Source of the DNA: Escherichia phage vB_EcoM_EP32a | Reading direction: 5' to 3' (one strand) | Sequence record: OR544954 | DNA length: 64,000 nucleotides | Shown: piece after piece, positions 9,076 through 48,377 of the stretch | Numbering within the stretch: the first letter of the stretch is position 1 | How the letters are laid out: each line of letters starts with the position of its first letter | The notes under the pieces: model-generated | The model's database searches: none | The model's input: only the letters and a program-made list of their open reading frames with translations | What the model was told of the DNA's origin: nothing | Program-made: the position numbers and the translations under genes

Positions 9076-9810
9076 ATGGAGCTAATCTTTTTAAGCGGCA
9101 TCAAACGTAGTGGTAAAGACACCACTGCTGATTACATCAATTCAAACTTTAAATCCGTAAAATATCAATTGGCATATCCAATTAAAGACGCTCTAGCAAT
9201 AGCCTGGGGACGTAGGCATGCTGAAAATCCTGATGTATTCACAGAGTTGAAATACGAATACTTTGAAGGCATTGGATACGACCGTGAAACACCATTAAAT
9301 CTCAATAAGTTGGATGTTATTGAATTATTGGAAGAAGCGCTAATTTATTTGCAAAGCCAATATTTACCAATTAATAATGTTAAAGTATTATCATCGTTAG
9401 AAGGTGGATATTCGTATCTAGATATTAAACCATATGAAGCCCTGCGTGAAGCTATAAATAATATCAACGACACATGGTCAATCCGCCGTCTTATGCAAGC
9501 CCTCGGTACGGATGTTGTCGTTAATTTATTTGACCGTATGTATTGGGTTAAACTTTTTGCATTAAACTATATGGATTATATTGGAAGTGATTTCGATTAC
9601 TATGTCGTAACCGATACACGTCAAGTCCATGAAATGGAAACCGCTAGAGCGATGGGTGCTACAGTTATTCATGTGGTTCGCTCTGGTACGGAATCCACCG
9701 ATAAACATATTACAGAAGCTGGGTTGCCTATTGAAGAAGGCGATTTAGTTATTACAAACGACGGCTCTTTAGAAGAGCTTTATTCTAAAATTGAAACAAT
9801 CTTAAGGTAA
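9076..9810 (+). CDS. 1: deoxynucleoside monophosphate kinase gp1
   Basis: 244 aa, P-loop GIKRSGKDTTAD, similar to recalled T4 gp1. Confidence 0.88.
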   Translation: MELIFLSGIKRSGKDTTADYINSNFKSVKYQLAYPIKDALAIAWGRRHAENPDVFTELKYEYFEGIGYDRETPLNLNKLDVIELLEEALIYLQSQYLPINNVKVLSSLEGGYSYLDIKPYEALREAINNINDTWSIRRLMQALGTDVVVNLFDRMYWVKLFALNYMDYIGSDFDYYVVTDTRQVHEMETARAMGATVIHVVRSGTESTDKHITEAGLPIEEGDLVITNDGSLEELYSKIETILR

Positions 9811-11122: not shown

Positions 11123-11485
11123 ATGAAATATCACGTATATGCTGATTTTGAAGCAAATCCTTCTAAAGACCCGGATTGTCGTTTGATACGTAATCCGTTT
11201 GATTCAGCAGCTCAAGCATGGACTTGGATTAAATCTAAATCGCCTGGTTATATGTTCTTTGAAGTAGTCGATGACAATGGTACACTGCATCCAGAACCTA
11301 CAGAAACTATTAATTTCCTTCTGTTTGCTGGTTATGACTGTTATCCTCTTGGTGGTATTGACGACCTTGTTGCTACAGGAAAAACTGTTGAGGCTCTTCG
11401 CGAAATTTATAAAAACGCAGAAGAAAATTTTGACTGGTATCATATTGTCAGTGCACATACTTTTGAAGTGGTGGAACACTCATGA
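11123..11485 (+). CDS. hypothetical protein
   Basis: ORF MKYHVYADFEANPSK..., start after GGTGAG. Confidence 0.55.
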   Translation: MKYHVYADFEANPSKDPDCRLIRNPFDSAAQAWTWIKSKSPGYMFFEVVDDNGTLHPEPTETINFLLFAGYDCYPLGGIDDLVATGKTVEALREIYKNAEENFDWYHIVSAHTFEVVEHS

Positions 11486-11552
11486 TTCTTTACGCTAAAG
11501 TAAAATCTGTCGAGAACGGATATGAAAGCGACTAGTCGATGACTATGGTATT

Positions 11553-11753
11553 TTGACTAATTTTGAAGTTGAAAAGGTTTATATCGACCGTTCATCTTCG
11601 CAAGTTAAATTACTCTGTGAAGATGATAAATTTAACACAGTGAACTTTGATTTCTTTATTGAAACAGAAAAAGGCCCTCTTGAATATGATATTTTCAAGA
11701 ATCCTTTGAAATTACGTTGCATTGAATATAATTACATTAATATGGTACGGTGA
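11553..11753 (+). CDS. hypothetical protein
   Basis: 66-aa ORF. Confidence 0.45.
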   Translation: MTNFEVEKVYIDRSSSQVKLLCEDDKFNTVNFDFFIETEKGPLEYDIFKNPLKLRCIEYNYINMVR

Positions 11754-11850
11754 TTAAATGAATATTCGTTTAGGCAGTACAATTCCTAAGGGCTACGTAA
11801 TTGATGTCACTACCTAGGAAAATGATGGTGACAACTATAAAACCAAAACA

Positions 11851-12273
11851 TTGTTTGAAGTGGAAGAGCATGAGCTCCAACAGTTTAAATATCTCTTGAA
11901 GAAATTTAAGAGTCGTCATTCTAGCACTAAAGCCGAACGTTATTGTGGTAATACACCATTCAGTGATTGCTCGCTTTTAATCTATGAATACTTGGTTGAA
12001 GGGCTGTTCTCAGACCAGCTTTATCCAGAATTTATTAAAAAGGTCTTTGATATTGAAGTCGACCTCGGTAATAAATCTGAAGAAGACGAAGCGCGTGTAT
12101 TTGACCTGTTCCATGAGAATGGATATTTAGTATCAGAAGGTCTCATTGATATTCTTGGCCATGCTTCTGAATACTATGATTACGATTTCTTGCGTGTAGT
12201 TGAACGTGTCGAATTTGCTTATATTGAAGAAGAAATCGTTTTGCCAACCGTTAAAATGGTTGATTTGCTTTAA
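11851..12273 (+). CDS. hypothetical acidic protein (possibly truncated by an upstream in-frame TAG)
   Basis: ORF track 140 aa with a non-ATG start; the same frame is open from ATG 11758 but contains TAG at 11815-11817. Confidence 0.45.
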   Translation: MFEVEEHELQQFKYLLKKFKSRHSSTKAERYCGNTPFSDCSLLIYEYLVEGLFSDQLYPEFIKKVFDIEVDLGNKSEEDEARVFDLFHENGYLVSEGLIDILGHASEYYDYDFLRVVERVEFAYIEEEIVLPTVKMVDLL

Positions 12274-18745: not shown

Positions 18746-18789
18746 TATGAATAGTTCTAAAGTGTTTAATAGTCAAGCTCGTGCAGTAG

Positions 18790-19347
18790 GTGGTTTTGCT
18801 CACGCGATTAAAAATGACCAGATTAAAAACGAGCCTATGTTCTTCAACTGTAGTATTTGATTCACGAGTCCATATGCTGATGCCTGGTTGGTATCCTGCT
18901 ATTCCAGGTTATCACCATGACGATGTACCACGCCCGGATATTCCAGTTGGTCAACACTTTATTACTGCAGGACAACCTGACTATGACAATCCTCGCTATT
19001 TGTCTGAACACATTCTTGGTCTTGTTAACGCTGATGTGTGTCCTACTCATTTTGCAACAGGAACTGCAGAGTTCAGTCAGATTCCTGATGGCGAACTTAT
19101 CTATCGCCAGTGGCACAAAGAAGTCCTCGAAAAAATCGAAAAAGGTGAACTAGAGAAATGGGAAGCTCCGGACCGTACTCTTCTTCAGTTTGATTGGCAA
19201 ACATGGCACACTGGTTCTCGTGCAATTAGTAATGGATGGCGTTGGTTCGGACGTGTATCTCGTAATACAGACCGAGTTAAAAAGATTACCAATGAAATTC
19301 GTGTCAATGCTCAAGTTTATCTGGAATTCCCTATGGAAGGCTGGTAA
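18790..19347 (+). CDS. hypothetical protein (start uncertain; possible frameshifted N-terminus)
   Basis: ORF in a +1 frame relative to the short ORF 18747-18860 that has the good start context. Confidence 0.4.
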   Translation: MVLLTRLKMTRLKTSLCSSTVVFDSRVHMLMPGWYPAIPGYHHDDVPRPDIPVGQHFITAGQPDYDNPRYLSEHILGLVNADVCPTHFATGTAEFSQIPDGELIYRQWHKEVLEKIEKGELEKWEAPDRTLLQFDWQTWHTGSRAISNGWRWFGRVSRNTDRVKKITNEIRVNAQVYLEFPMEGW

Positions 19348-22061: not shown

Positions 22062-22095
22062 TTGTTTACGCTTAAGTATTAATATGGTATAATTA
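22062..22095 (+). promoter_or_regulatory. T4-type early promoter
   Basis: GTTTAC, 18-bp spacer, TATAAT. Confidence 0.5.
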
Positions 22096-22123: not shown

Positions 22124-22195
22124 ATGAAAACATATAAAGAATTTATCGCCGATCCAACCTGTAATAAGGTCGAGCCCAAGTGCGGTAATGGGTTT
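22124..22195 (+). pseudogene. remnant or minimal internal-protein gene (leader + 13 aa, in-frame TAG)
   Basis: MKTYKEFIADPTCNKVEPKCGNGFT then TAG; same frame stays open to 22260. Confidence 0.4.
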
Positions 22196-22257
22196 ACATA
22201 GCGAGTCGAAGGACCTAACATGTGCCACGGAATGGCCCAAACCTTAAGAGAAATAAT

Positions 22258-22797
22258 ATGAGAACATTTTTAACTGGACCTTATCTATCCCTGATGAATG
22301 CTTTTACACACCATTCTGATGCTAGAGTAGAAGAAATTTGTAAGAACGGTTATGTCCCGCCATTTGAAGAAGTACTCAAGCAGTACTGTACACTTCGTTT
22401 AGACGGCGGCCGACAATCCGGTAAATAAATTGCTGTGACTAACTTTGCTGCTAATTGGCTGTATGATGGTGGAACAGTTATTGTTCTTTCTAATACTTCA
22501 GCTTATGCTAAAATTTCTGCTGGCAACATTAAAAAAGAATTTTCTCGTTATTCTAGCGATGATATTCGATTCCGTTTATTTACTGATTCTGTTCGTAGTT
22601 TTATTGGCAATGAAGGTTCTAAATTCCGTGGATTAACGCTTTCTCGTATTCTGTATATAATTGACGAGCCTATTAAAGCTCCTGATATGGATAAGATTTA
22701 CAATGTACATATTAAAACAGTCCAACACTGTTGCAAAAGCAAATATTGCATCGGCGGTAATGCTCGTCCTCAATTTTTTGTGATTGGAATGCAATGA
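22258..22797 (+). pseudogene. P-loop NTPase interrupted by in-frame TAA inside Walker A
   Basis: ...LDGGRQSGK-TAA-IAVTNF... same frame across 22426-22428; Walker B-like ILYIIDEP downstream. Confidence 0.5.
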
Positions 22798-23102
22798 TGA
22801 CCACTATTGAAGTTTTTGAGTATTGTTATAACAGTCCAGTATGCAATAAAAGGGCCCTTGTAGAAAATTACGAGATTTACCATTTTAAACCTAAACGATA
22901 TCGTTTGACTAAAGGTCCGTTCGCAGGGCAGCAGGTTCTTTGTACTGCTCCTAATGCACGACTGATGACTAGTATTCCACATTTCAAAATGGAATTTATT
23001 GATGGGCCATTTAAGGGATTAATCACTCAAAGTTTAATGGCGTTTAATTCCGACCCATTTTTGATTAAAGAAAAATCTTGGATAAATTTATTTTCTAATT
23101 GA
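22794..23102 (+). CDS. hypothetical protein
   Basis: 102-aa ORF. Confidence 0.5.
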   Translation: MMTTIEVFEYCYNSPVCNKRALVENYEIYHFKPKRYRLTKGPFAGQQVLCTAPNARLMTSIPHFKMEFIDGPFKGLITQSLMAFNSDPFLIKEKSWINLFSN

Positions 23103-23108
23103 GGTTAT

Positions 23109-23471
23109 ATGAAAGCATATCAAATTCTTGAAGGTGCACATAAAGGCACTATTTATTTTGAAGACGGTACTCAAGCCAGGATTATTGTCTCTAAGACTTT
23201 TAAAGAAGACGCTATTGTAGACCCGGAAATTTTCTACGGTTTGAATGCCCGTGAAATTGAAATTGAACATCAACCTAAAGTTAAAATTGAAGGTGGACAA
23301 CATCTGAACGTTAACGTTCTGCGTCGTGAAACTCTAGAAGATGCAGTTAAGCATCCAGAAAAATATCCGCAGCTGACCATCCGTGTATCTGGTTATGCAG
23401 TTCGCTTTAACTCTCTGACTCCGGAACAGCAGCGTGACGTTATCGCTCGCACCTTTACTGAGAGTCTATAA
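23109..23471 (+). CDS. autonomous glycyl-radical cofactor (GrcA/YfiD-like; cf. T4 Y06I)
   Basis: C-terminal [59 protein letters not shown], glycyl-radical motif RVSGY. Confidence 0.9.
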
Positions 23472-23695
23472 TGGCTAAATTGATTATAGAAGGGTCTGAA
23501 GATGTTTTAAAATGTTTTGCCGCCTGGTTTAGTTGCTCAGGCGAGCAATCATTCACTGAAGCATTTAGAATGGGTGATATTACTGGAAACTATCCGACAA
23601 CTGATATCACTGTACGTGGATATGGTATTAATGAGCCTATCCAATTGGTCGAATATGACCTTGCCACCGATGAGGAAATTCCTTATGTCGATTGA
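23471..23695 (+). CDS. hypothetical protein
   Basis: 74 aa, ATGA-coupled. Confidence 0.5.
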   Translation: MAKLIIEGSEDVLKCFAAWFSCSGEQSFTEAFRMGDITGNYPTTDITVRGYGINEPIQLVEYDLATDEEIPYVD

Positions 23696-23815
23696 AGACA
23701 TCAAAGGCTACAAGCCGCATACCGATGATAAAATCAGTAAAGTGAACGCTATTAAAGATGCAGAAGTTCGTGTCGTGCAGTATTTCGACCTGAGGAAAAA
23801 TACTAATGGCTAGAG

Positions 23816-33802: not shown

Positions 33803-34633
33803 ATGGCTTTTATTACACGTAGAGAACTTATCAAAGAATTTACCTCTAACGCATATACTCCAGGACCTAATCCTATCCGTATGCCTGTAAAGACTCCTGA
33901 AGAGATTGAGGAAATCTGTTCATATTATGGGATTACTTCTCGTAAGTTTACTCAATTTGAATGTGTTACTAACACACCCGTTAAAGAGTTCATTAAAAAT
34001 GGCGAGTTCAGCCGTTTATTAGCCAAACAGAAACTTCGTAATTTTTGTATCGGCGGTGAAGGACAATATTTCGCTAAGCAGTTCCGAAATAACCTTAACA
34101 ATCTGATGGCCATTGCTTCTCGTATTCGTCCTCAAGCAATTAACATGAAACATTTGAAATATACTTACGATAAGTTAGAAATCATGGTTATCAGTGAGAA
34201 CGAGTTCACTCTTACATATAATCCTAAGAATGATAACGTTGCTCGTGTATTCCACCAAGCACTGGAAGTTTTAGGCGATAATATCCACCAGATTAAAGCG
34301 ATTTATTCTCGTGAGCTTAATATTATTGACCCTATCAAGAATAAGGGCAATATCGCTATCCAGGCTCGTGTATCTATTGGTAAAAAGGTTCCTGCGCCAT
34401 GGTGGCACAAAGACTCTGAATACTATCAAAATCTTAAAAAGGAAAATGCATTGTTTGAAGCTCTTCTTCCGGCCGAAGATTACCATTACAATCAAATCAA
34501 GGCCACTATGGACCAACTGTCTGTTGAACTTGACAAAGCACAAGCTAAGCTTCGTGATGCTCAACAAGTAGTTACCAATCTCCAGTTGCAGTACTCTAAA
34601 CTTTTTAACGCAATGAATGCATTAAAATCATAA
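33803..34633 (+). CDS. hypothetical protein with C-terminal coiled coil
   Basis: 276 aa. Confidence 0.55.
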   Translation: MAFITRRELIKEFTSNAYTPGPNPIRMPVKTPEEIEEICSYYGITSRKFTQFECVTNTPVKEFIKNGEFSRLLAKQKLRNFCIGGEGQYFAKQFRNNLNNLMAIASRIRPQAINMKHLKYTYDKLEIMVISENEFTLTYNPKNDNVARVFHQALEVLGDNIHQIKAIYSRELNIIDPIKNKGNIAIQARVSIGKKVPAPWWHKDSEYYQNLKKENALFEALLPAEDYHYNQIKATMDQLSVELDKAQAKLRDAQQVVTNLQLQYSKLFNAMNALKS

Positions 34634-46555: not shown

Positions 46556-46781
46556 TTATGAAATCCATCGTCATGAATTTAGTATTGGTGACGGTTATAT
46601 TGGTATCGTTGAATGGACCGAGAATTACGAGGAATCAACTCCTCGTTTCTTTGGAACAATGTATGTTACCTGTGAGTACGCACCAGGTGTTGTTATGTAT
46701 GCAGAACTAGATGAATATTTTGCTGATAGAGATGACATGTTAAAATATGTAGAGGACTTCATTCGAAGAGAATACATATGA
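46542..46781 (+). CDS. hypothetical protein
   Basis: MTKTDYEIHRHEF... Confidence 0.5.
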   Translation: MTKTDYEIHRHEFSIGDGYIGIVEWTENYEESTPRFFGTMYVTCEYAPGVVMYAELDEYFADRDDMLKYVEDFIRREYI

Positions 46782-48377
46782 AATCATTTAAATTAAATCG
46801 TGTTCGTTATCAAAACATCATGTCGGTAGGTGGGAATCCTATTGATATCCAATTAGATAAAGTCCAAAAGACATTAATCACTGGTAAAAATGGCGGTGGT
46901 AAATCTACGATGTTAGAAGCCATTACTTTCGGACTTTTCGGTAAACCATTTCGTGATGTTAAGAAAGGACAAATCATTAACAGCACGAATAAGAAAGAGC
47001 TCTTAGTTGAGCTTTGGATGGAATTCGATGGTAAAAAATACTTCATTAAACGTGGCCAAAAGCCCAATATTTTCGAAATCTCCGTTGACGGTGTTCGTCT
47101 TGATGAATCTGCCAGCAGTCGCGACTTCCAAGAAGAATTTGAACGTAGCATCGGAATGTCATACGCGTCTTTTAAACAAATCGTTGTGCTTGGGACGGCA
47201 GGGTATACCCCTTTCATGGCTCTTAGCACCCCTGCTCGTAGAAAACTTGTCGAAGACCTTTTAGAAGTCGGCACACTCGCTGAAATGGATAAAATCAATA
47301 AGTCTCAAGTTCGAGAACTTAATTCCCAGGGACAAGTTCTCGATGCCAAGAAAGATGGTATTATCCAACAAATTAAGATTTATAACGAGAATATCGAACG
47401 TCAAAAGAAATTATCTGGTGATAATGTAGCGCGTCTACAGAATATGTATGACGACCTAGCCAAAGAAGCTCGTTCATTAAAAGCAGAAATCGAAGAAGCT
47501 AATGAGCGACTACTTAATATCGTTCTTGACGAAGACCCTACTGAGGCATTCAACAAGATAGGACAAGAAGCATTCTTGATTAAATCTAAAATTGACTCAT
47601 ATAACAAAGTTATTAAGATGTATCATGATGGCGGTACATGTCCTACTTGTGCATCACAGTTGCACCAGGGTGATCCTATTGTCTCTAAGATTACCGATAA
47701 GCTTCACGAATGTAATCACTCATTCGAGCAACTTACATGTCACAGAGATAATCTGAGTGTCCTAGTGGACGAATATAGAGCTAATGTTAAGACTAAACAG
47801 GACCTTGCATCTGATATTCGCACCAAGAAACAAGCAATGATTGCCACTATTGATAAAGCTAAGAAAGTTAAAGCTGCAATAGAGCAAGCCTCAGCAGAAT
47901 TTATCGACCATGCCGATGAGATAGCTTTGCTTCAAAAAGAACTTGATAAAATCATTAAAACAAAATCAGATATCGTTCTTGAAAAATACCATCGTGGTAT
48001 TATCACAGATATGTTAAAAGATTCTGGTATTAAAGGTGCTATCATTAAAAAATATGTGCCTCTGTTCAACAAGCAGATTAACCATTATCTTAAAATCATG
48101 GAAGCTGATTACGTGTTTTCTATTGATGAAGAATTCAATGAATCTATAAAATCACGTGGTCGTGAAGATTTTAGTTATGCTTCATTTAGTCAAGGTGAAA
48201 AAGCGCGTATCGATATCGCATTGTTGTTTACATGGCGAGATATTGCTGAAAAGGTCTCTGGCGTTAGAATCAACAAACGTGTTCATTATTTGTCATAGAG
48301 ACCATGACCCACAAGCTTATGGACAACATCTTCAAATGAGCAAAGTTGGACGATTTACTGTAATGACTGTTTCATAA
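46778..48377 (+). pseudogene. 46: recombination endonuclease subunit gp46 (Rad50/SbcC-like), apparently disrupted
   Basis: Frame A has Walker A GKNGGGKST and signature SFSQGEKARIDIAL but stops at 48298; H-loop-like NVFIICHRDHD continues in the +1 frame to 48377; no Walker B between them. Confidence 0.55.

Follow-up and report, generated by a model that had tools for sequence, protein, structure and literature searches.

A premature ochre codon in the Walker A motif of the vs.8 homologue of a Mosigvirus genome, downstream of a truncated candidate structured RNA

The window, that is, the whole stretch of 64,000 nucleotides of Escherichia phage vB_EcoM_EP32a (sequence record OR544954) that was analysed, was placed by megablast in the RB69 group (Mosigvirus); APCEc01 is the nearest relative, with about 98% identity over 22 kb, and no record is identical to the window. 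Judged by nucleotide similarity, the window belongs to an RB69-like T4-type phage of the genus Mosigvirus. The local ORFs encode, in order, NudE, lysozyme e, an internal protein, DenV, a further internal protein, the vs.8 product, Vs.7 and a GrcA-like glycyl-radical protein (vs.6), and the arrangement e / ip / denV / ip ... vs.8 / vs.7 / vs.6 (GrcA) is the same as that in RB69 and T4. On the plus strand, translation of the frame opened by the ATG at 22258 gives 56 sense codons ending in L-D-G-G-R-Q-S-G-K, followed by TAA at 22426-22428; a further 122 codons then stay open in the same frame, through I-L-Y-I-I-D-E-P (22648-22671), to the TGA at 22795-22797. The conceptual translation of 22258-22830 reads MRTFLTGPYLSLMNAFTHHSDARVEEICKNGYVPPFEEVLKQYCTLRLDGGRQSGK, TAA, and then IAVTNFAANWLYDGG...LSRILYIIDEPIKAPDMDK...FFVIGMQ up to that TGA. 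In addition, the program-made ORF list contains two GTG-started ORFs on the same strand, one of 68 aa (22222-22428) which ends at the premature TAA, and one of 120 aa (22435-22797) which corresponds to the C-terminal two-thirds of Vs.8 and is a possible restart product without the Walker A motif. The vs.7 homologue (22794-23102, plus strand; Pfam Phage_T4_Y06J) is intact, and its ATG overlaps the vs.8 stop codon (ATGA).

When serine was put in for the stop, residues 3-179 of the resulting protein matched positions 2-177 of the 177 positions of phrog_1488 (E 1.6e-78), and the two fragments taken separately mapped to the adjacent stretches 1-54 and 59-177 of the same profile. The orthologue is named vs.8 in RB69 and "p-loop containing nucleoside triphosphate hydrolase" in 348Ecol098PP. 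By these matches, the ORF 22258-22797 is a homologue of T4 vs.8 (PHROG 1488), the predicted product being a 179-aa single-domain P-loop ATPase. It resembles the vs.8 genes of T4 and RB69 (NP_049732, NP_861812) in family, length and motifs, and occupies the same slot between the internal-protein/denV cluster and vs.7-vs.6 (GrcA); unlike them, it carries a TAA at codon 57 and lacks the 5' part of the RNA element that lies upstream. The vs.8 gene family is thus already known, and it is functionally uncharacterised.

The family set was collected as 29 clusters from a search of 5.8 billion proteins, most members being 172-196 aa long. The window copy falls short of an uninterrupted ORF of about 172-196 codons, which is the norm of the family; four other database members (P0018, P0019, P0025 and P0027) are truncated or frameshifted as well. 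In the family alignment, T-L-R-L-D-G-G-R-Q-S-G-K varies hardly or not at all, and all 24 members that have the motif carry S or T directly after it. Three further features hardly vary even among homologues with as little as 37% identity: the I-I-D-E-P segment (I134, I135, D136, E137, P138), an R-G pair and a C-terminal G-x-Q. The Walker A pattern G-x4-G-K is matched in the window by G-G-R-Q-S-G-K (22405-22425), and the Ser/Thr position (22426-22428) is occupied by the TAA, so that the full pattern G-x4-G-K-[S/T] is lost from this copy; the close relatives that were aligned read GGT AAA TCA where the window reads GGT AAA TAA. The Walker B-like ILYIIDEP is undamaged but lies 3' of the stop, and ILYIIDE (22648-22668) fits the hhhhD-E pattern and corresponds to strand E131-136 in the model of a relative (P0001). 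Modelling also predicts a RecA-like alpha/beta fold for Vs.8.

The R-Q-x-G-K-S/T form of Walker A has a terminase flavour, gp17 having SRQLGKT. Vs.8 matches PHROG 2 (large terminase) at E 5.7e-5, and the match to Pfam Terminase_6N (E 0.058, 13.5 bits) stays under the gathering cut-off of 22, so that membership of the terminase family is not supported. The other Pfam results were AAA and terminase matches, all below threshold; NCBIfam gave no match, PADLOC gave noise only (E 0.01-0.05), and the PDB sequence profile search gave nothing below E 0.16. No function is assigned to the family in Pfam, NCBIfam or PHROGs, and full-text literature searching for vs.8, a name which collides with clinical "vs. 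8" text, returned nothing relevant. Compared with the ATPase of the large terminases (T4 gp17 N-terminal domain, PDB 2o0h; Pfam Terminase_6N; PHROG 2), Vs.8 has only 179 aa and no nuclease domain, and vs.8 is an early accessory gene outside the packaging module, so it is no terminase. Likewise, the RecA1 domains of SF2 helicases and translocases (Mfd, DDX1, Mss116, RIG-I) share 8-14% identity with Vs.8, which is without a second RecA domain and in which no SF2 helicase motifs beyond Walker A and B were seen; the likeness is that of the general ASCE fold. Vs.8 is therefore best described as a predicted minimal terminase-like ASCE ATPase encoded by a conserved early accessory gene.

In four of the four relatives aligned (RB69, 348Ecol098PP, pEB20 and APCEc01), the vs.8 ORF of 540 bp is uninterrupted and has TCA at the codon concerned; the window DNA is 98% identical to the intact genes of RB69, APCEc01 and pEB20. 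A single intact 179-aa vs.8 was found at all of the inspected loci, namely those of the four aligned relatives, that of vB_EQ1, and six contigs with an identical Vs.7. At least 80% of vs.8 is spanned by 662 phage records, the best of which reaches 99.3% identity, and none is identical to the window. In a degenerate scan of IMG/VR, D-G-G-R-Q-S-G-K was followed by a Ser/Thr codon (WCN) in 20 contigs and by TRR (TAA, TAG, TGA or TGG) in none; the 39-mer with the TAA had no exact match in IMG/VR, and neither product of the split gene was found in a collection of 15 billion proteins. Because the relatives are intact and because the IMG/VR stop contigs, the 39-mer and the fragment products are all absent from these collections, the TAA appears to be private to this sequence. 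The original prediction, that one P-loop NTPase frame runs on to ILYIIDEP past an in-frame TAA lying exactly at the Walker A Ser/Thr, is borne out by retranslation and by the family alignment, and the intact 179-aa gene of the inspected relatives supports a single gene broken at that codon; none of these relatives has two separate genes here with no Walker A across the junction.

The region just upstream of vs.8 is also altered in the window. A short ORF (22125-22202, plus strand) starts with nine internal-protein codons (MKTYKEFIA), the leader common to the internal-protein genes of this region, and then runs through non-coding sequence to a TAG at 22200-22202. Its left flank, up to 22152, is 100% identical to vB_EQ1, Av-05 and phiE142, and in vB_EQ1 the MKTYKEFIA start opens a 192-aa IpIII-like gene; from 22153 on, the window matches an element upstream of vs.8 which is reached only after another 616 bp in vB_EQ1 and another 708 bp in APCEc01. 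Since the two flanks match sequences 0.6-0.7 kb apart in relatives, the short ORF is a deletion chimera. The junction (22152/22153; a loss of 708 bp relative to APCEc01 and of about 616 bp relative to vB_EQ1) was not spanned in one piece by any record of a 50,697-record phage collection, and the deletion took one or two internal-protein genes together with the 5' domain of the RNA element. The ORF at 22125 had been described earlier as what is left of an internal-protein gene, with a TAG in frame; it does end with TAG at 22200-22202, but this codon is no nonsense mutation, for it sits within GGGTTTACATAG, a conserved element that is non-coding in RB69, APCEc01, vB_EQ1 and Kp122 and that was joined to the leader by the deletion. 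Further upstream, a site resembling a sigma-70/T4-early-type promoter (TTTACG-17-TATAAT with a TG extension; 22065-22093, plus strand) was noted from its match to the consensus, and such sites are just as numerous in the region as would be expected from shuffles; it would originally have served the deleted internal-protein gene, and now probably drives the chimeric ORF and the vs.8 remnant.

The element that is cut by this deletion is GC-rich, about 120-145 nt long, and lies directly 5' of vs.8; the T4-like phages that have it there belong to at least five genera of the Tevenvirinae. It was detected by blastn in 987 phage records, including T4-like phages of Klebsiella, Enterobacter, Citrobacter and Raoultella, and rV5-like Vequintavirus has a 39-nt core with 97% identity; the invariant core, ACCUGUAAUAAGGUCGAGC...GCGGUAA, is common to T4-like and rV5-like phages. 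Full copies were located in RB69 (L001:2241-2384), T4 (L004:3320-3442, minus strand) and Klebsiella phage Kp122 (L007:1941-2085), and a core-only copy in rV5 (L006:2501-2538). In T4-type phages, the 5' domain is another one of equivalent structure, and in rV5-like phages only the core matches. Exact copies of the invariant 19-mer ACCTGTAATAAGGTCGAGC are present in 29 IMG/VR contigs and in none of 185,579 bacterial and archaeal genomes, which speaks against a host-derived origin of the element. Mostly, the element occupies an unannotated gap just 5' of vs.8; the rV5-like copies are flanked by promoters, upstream of the tRNA cluster. In the T4 annotation, it is read as a 40-aa N-terminal extension of Vs.8 (219 aa). 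A coding extension was rejected, given that all three frames are joined to vs.8 in different phages and that the core contains single-base indels; the extension of the 219-aa T4 protein is probably a mis-annotation.

Several lines of evidence point to RNA structure. RNAalifold on 19 sequences gave nested helices and a long-range helix with covariation. In a manual structure, in which the long-range helix was set as a pseudoknot, 99.0% of the cells are paired and six pairs have compensatory changes; none of 500 shuffles came up to this structure in covariation score, in percentage of paired cells or in number of compensatory cells, and all slid controls of the manual structure had zero compensatory pairs. 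In a covariance-model alignment of 38 distinct sequences, which is fitted to the model and hence biased towards the structure, 11 of 29 pairs covary, including all five of P1. The covariation supports four helices and the pseudoknot. Among those IMG/VR vs.8 loci from the degenerate scan (Ser/Thr codon) that are without the exact 19-mer, the model found the element in 8 of 11, one of them with two copies; these tandem copies lie in the T4-like contig 3300045988_118042 (L048:8965-9084 and 9100-9220). A search against Rfam 15 that admitted E values of up to 1 found nothing in the loci of the window, RB69, T4, Kp122 or rV5, so that a known RNA family was ruled out, and the core sequence had no match in the searched literature. 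The element is very probably a genuine structured RNA, and its roles may include that of a leader or regulator of vs.8 as well as that of a stand-alone small RNA. This apparently undescribed, covariation-supported RNA upstream of vs.8 across T4-like phages is the real lead to come from the locus.

In the window, covariance model R1 matches 22140-22238 on the plus strand with 91 bits, 54 model positions being replaced by 8 nt. What is left (22153-22238) is the 3' two-thirds of the element, from which P1, P2 and one strand of the pseudoknot are missing, and the single-sequence fold of this truncated copy is no better than that of shuffles (z 0.04), a result of little weight with the 5' domain missing. 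It might be supposed that vs.8 and the pseudoknotted RNA form one module, in which the RNA acts as leader, regulator or partner, and that the two were inactivated together in the window: the RNA would have lost its 5' domain and the ATPase its P-loop, the TAA being secondary to the deletion or the reverse. We consider such a joint module rather unlikely.

The deletion at 22152/22153 is not the only private lesion in the window. Relative to APCEc01, the window has ten clean deletions (19, 621, 223, 86, 708, 353, 105, 291, 219 and 89 bp) and no insertion above 5 bp; at least seven of the ten deleted segments are absent from RB69 too. Five lesions are shared by no record: a 19-bp frameshifting deletion at about 11531 in the tRNA.2 homologue (11482-11753), an 86-bp frameshifting deletion at about 18847 in the RB69ORF132c homologue (18747-19347), the 0.6-0.7 kb deletion at 22152/22153, a loss of about 353 bp at 23771-23811 relative to all 168 matching records, and an 89-bp frameshifting deletion at about 48274 in gene 46 (46778-48374). 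The 19-bp and 86-bp deletions have little or no microhomology at their junctions. The 353-bp loss takes most of vs.4, whose homologues carry Pfam Acb2_Tad1_hairpin (an anti-CBASS sponge family), and the small ORF that follows it. Through the 89-bp deletion, the Rad50/SbcC-like gp46 loses its Walker B segment (TLILDEVFDG) and the rest is out of frame; the region is intact in all 559 phage records having it. Gene 46 is essential in T4, and das suppressors of 46/47 mutants exist; because of this essentiality, the viability of the phage or the fidelity of the sequence is in question. A 105-bp in-frame deletion relative to APCEc01 was also seen at 34461 in an nrdC.5-like gene (33803-34630), and this segment is absent from RB69 too. 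A second premature stop, TGG to TAG at 11815-11817 (codon 20), was noted in the RB69ORF151c homologue (11758-12273) by comparison with APCEc01 only; the best database identity of the stretch around it is about 93%.

RB69 and APCEc01, compared with each other over the same 50 kb, differ by about six frameshift-like changes and about seven absent accessory genes. Gain and loss of accessory genes are thus normal in the group, whereas the one-sided deletions and the gene 46 lesion are not. The one-sided pattern, unlike the presence and absence in both directions between RB69 and APCEc01, suggests either a deletion-enriched lineage or an altered sequence, and the source may be a lineage in decay or passaged in the laboratory, a genome that is defective, or a sequence that was altered. 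The window has roughly twelve private lesions with loss of function, of which the TAA in vs.8 is one, and these lesions, that of gene 46 above all, are a warning about the quality or the origin of the sequence.

Could the stop nevertheless be functional? If the TAA were a site of readthrough or suppression, near-cognate decoding or a suppressor tRNA would give full-length Vs.8, perhaps at a regulated low level. The frame is indeed open and conserved for 122 codons past the stop, but this is equally expected of a very recent mutation, and all that follows from it is that the change either happened recently or is not real. No relative examined has the stop, hence there is no conserved recoding signal, and UAA, which both release factors recognise, is of all stop codons in E. 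coli the one least prone to leak. Only tRNA-Met(CAT) and tRNA-Arg(TCT), and no suppressor tRNA, were found by ARAGORN in the 64-kb window, and the RB69 50 kb with the tRNA cluster annotates the same two tRNAs and no suppressor. Moreover, near-cognate decoding at UAA inserts Gln, Lys or Tyr; such a residue would replace the Mg-coordinating Ser/Thr, and the product should be catalytically dead. Programmed readthrough or bypassing, as with the UGA of Qbeta A1 or the hop in T4 gene 60, shares with this case only an in-frame stop and conserved coding sequence after it; the signals in those systems are conserved among relatives and have defined contexts, whereas the stop in the window is a private UAA that stands in the place of a catalytic residue. 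Among the approximately 115 APCEc01 genes with a counterpart in the window, only two in-frame stops arose by point substitution, one TAA and one TAG, so the genetic code is standard; this comparison and the tRNA scan rule out an alternative code or a suppressor tRNA. Readthrough thus seems extremely improbable. A division of vs.8 into two working cistrons, one for an N-terminal peptide of 56 aa and one, with a restart at GTG 22435, for a C-terminal protein of 120 aa, is hardly more credible. Restarts after nonsense codons are known in T4, the GTG lies 6 nt past the stop, and the ORF 22435-22797 exists; however, the arrangement occurs in no relative, no Shine-Dalgarno sequence is visible ahead of the GTG, neither product is among the 15 billion proteins, and the C-terminal piece would be without the P-loop and without the N-terminal helices, which in the model are packed against the core. 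Taken together, functional readings of the TAA have a very slim chance.

The choice is then between a real mutation and an artefact, and of the three explanations put forward in the original prediction, a recent nonsense mutation and a sequencing error both stand, while the readthrough site does not. In the case of an artefact, the TAA would be a base-call or consensus error, or would come from an altered or defective genome, and the living phage would have TCA and an intact vs.8. Consistent with this, the difference is a single base that is private to this sequence, and the window has many other private lesions, among them several deletions whose junctions show little if any microhomology, and the 89-bp loss from gene 46, which is probably lethal; because of this heavy load, the fidelity of the sequence to a viable phage is in doubt. 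The nature of the changes argues the other way. In a five-way alignment of 22154-23690, the window has 9 private substitutions, as against 11 in RB69, 24 in 348Ecol098PP, 6 in pEB20 and 8 in APCEc01; as the value of the window lies within the 6-24 of its relatives, substitution errors are not elevated. In addition, the other lesions are clean multi-base deletions, which are atypical of base-calling errors, and there is no homopolymer or other local feature favouring a C-to-A miscall. An artefact is therefore unlikely, though with a sizeable residual chance, and we favour a real mutation over a base-call error with a probability of about 0.66. The position of the stop carries little weight, for the landing of one private substitution among 179 codons on the Walker A codon is not statistically remarkable.

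At 22427, the window has A where RB69, 348Ecol098PP, pEB20 and APCEc01 all have C, the only base by which the codon differs. Under the favoured reading of a real mutation, this C-to-A change would have made the ochre codon TAA (22426-22428) out of TCA, the codon of the Walker A serine. Translation would stop after 56 residues, and a restart at GTG 22435 would yield a fragment without the P-loop, so that presumably no full-length protein is made; the loss would have been tolerated because vs.8 was dispensable under the conditions that the phage met. The copy would then be a young pseudogene with no recoding, within a local module that appears to have been degraded as a whole, the nearby deletion having taken the internal-protein gene or genes and the 5' part of the RNA element. 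Given the ATGA overlap with the vs.8 stop, vs.7 may have lost translational coupling. As it stands in the record, the vs.8 copy is a null allele whether the change is a real mutation or a sequence error, and natural pseudogenisation would be the wrong term if the genome proves to be defective, laboratory-altered or imperfectly assembled. The allele resembles the classical T4 amber and ochre nonsense mutants in having a one-base premature stop with the rest of the frame intact; unlike these mutants, it lies in a non-essential accessory gene of an isolate-type sequence, with no sign of deliberate selection or of a suppressor host.

The TAA itself matters little: whether it is an ordinary loss-of-function allele that is private to this sequence or an error, the accessory gene that it affects is not essential. 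If the phage exists and grows, it would be a ready-made vs.8 knockout, and the conserved ATPase would be dispensable under those conditions. For annotation, 22258-22797 is better entered as one pseudogene (179 codons, with the premature TAA at codon 57) than as two hypothetical proteins. Finally, two of the three private substitutions in vs.8 fall 8 nt apart in Walker A codons, a silent TCA to TCC at 22419 (Ser54) and the TCA to TAA at 22427, which is mildly odd.
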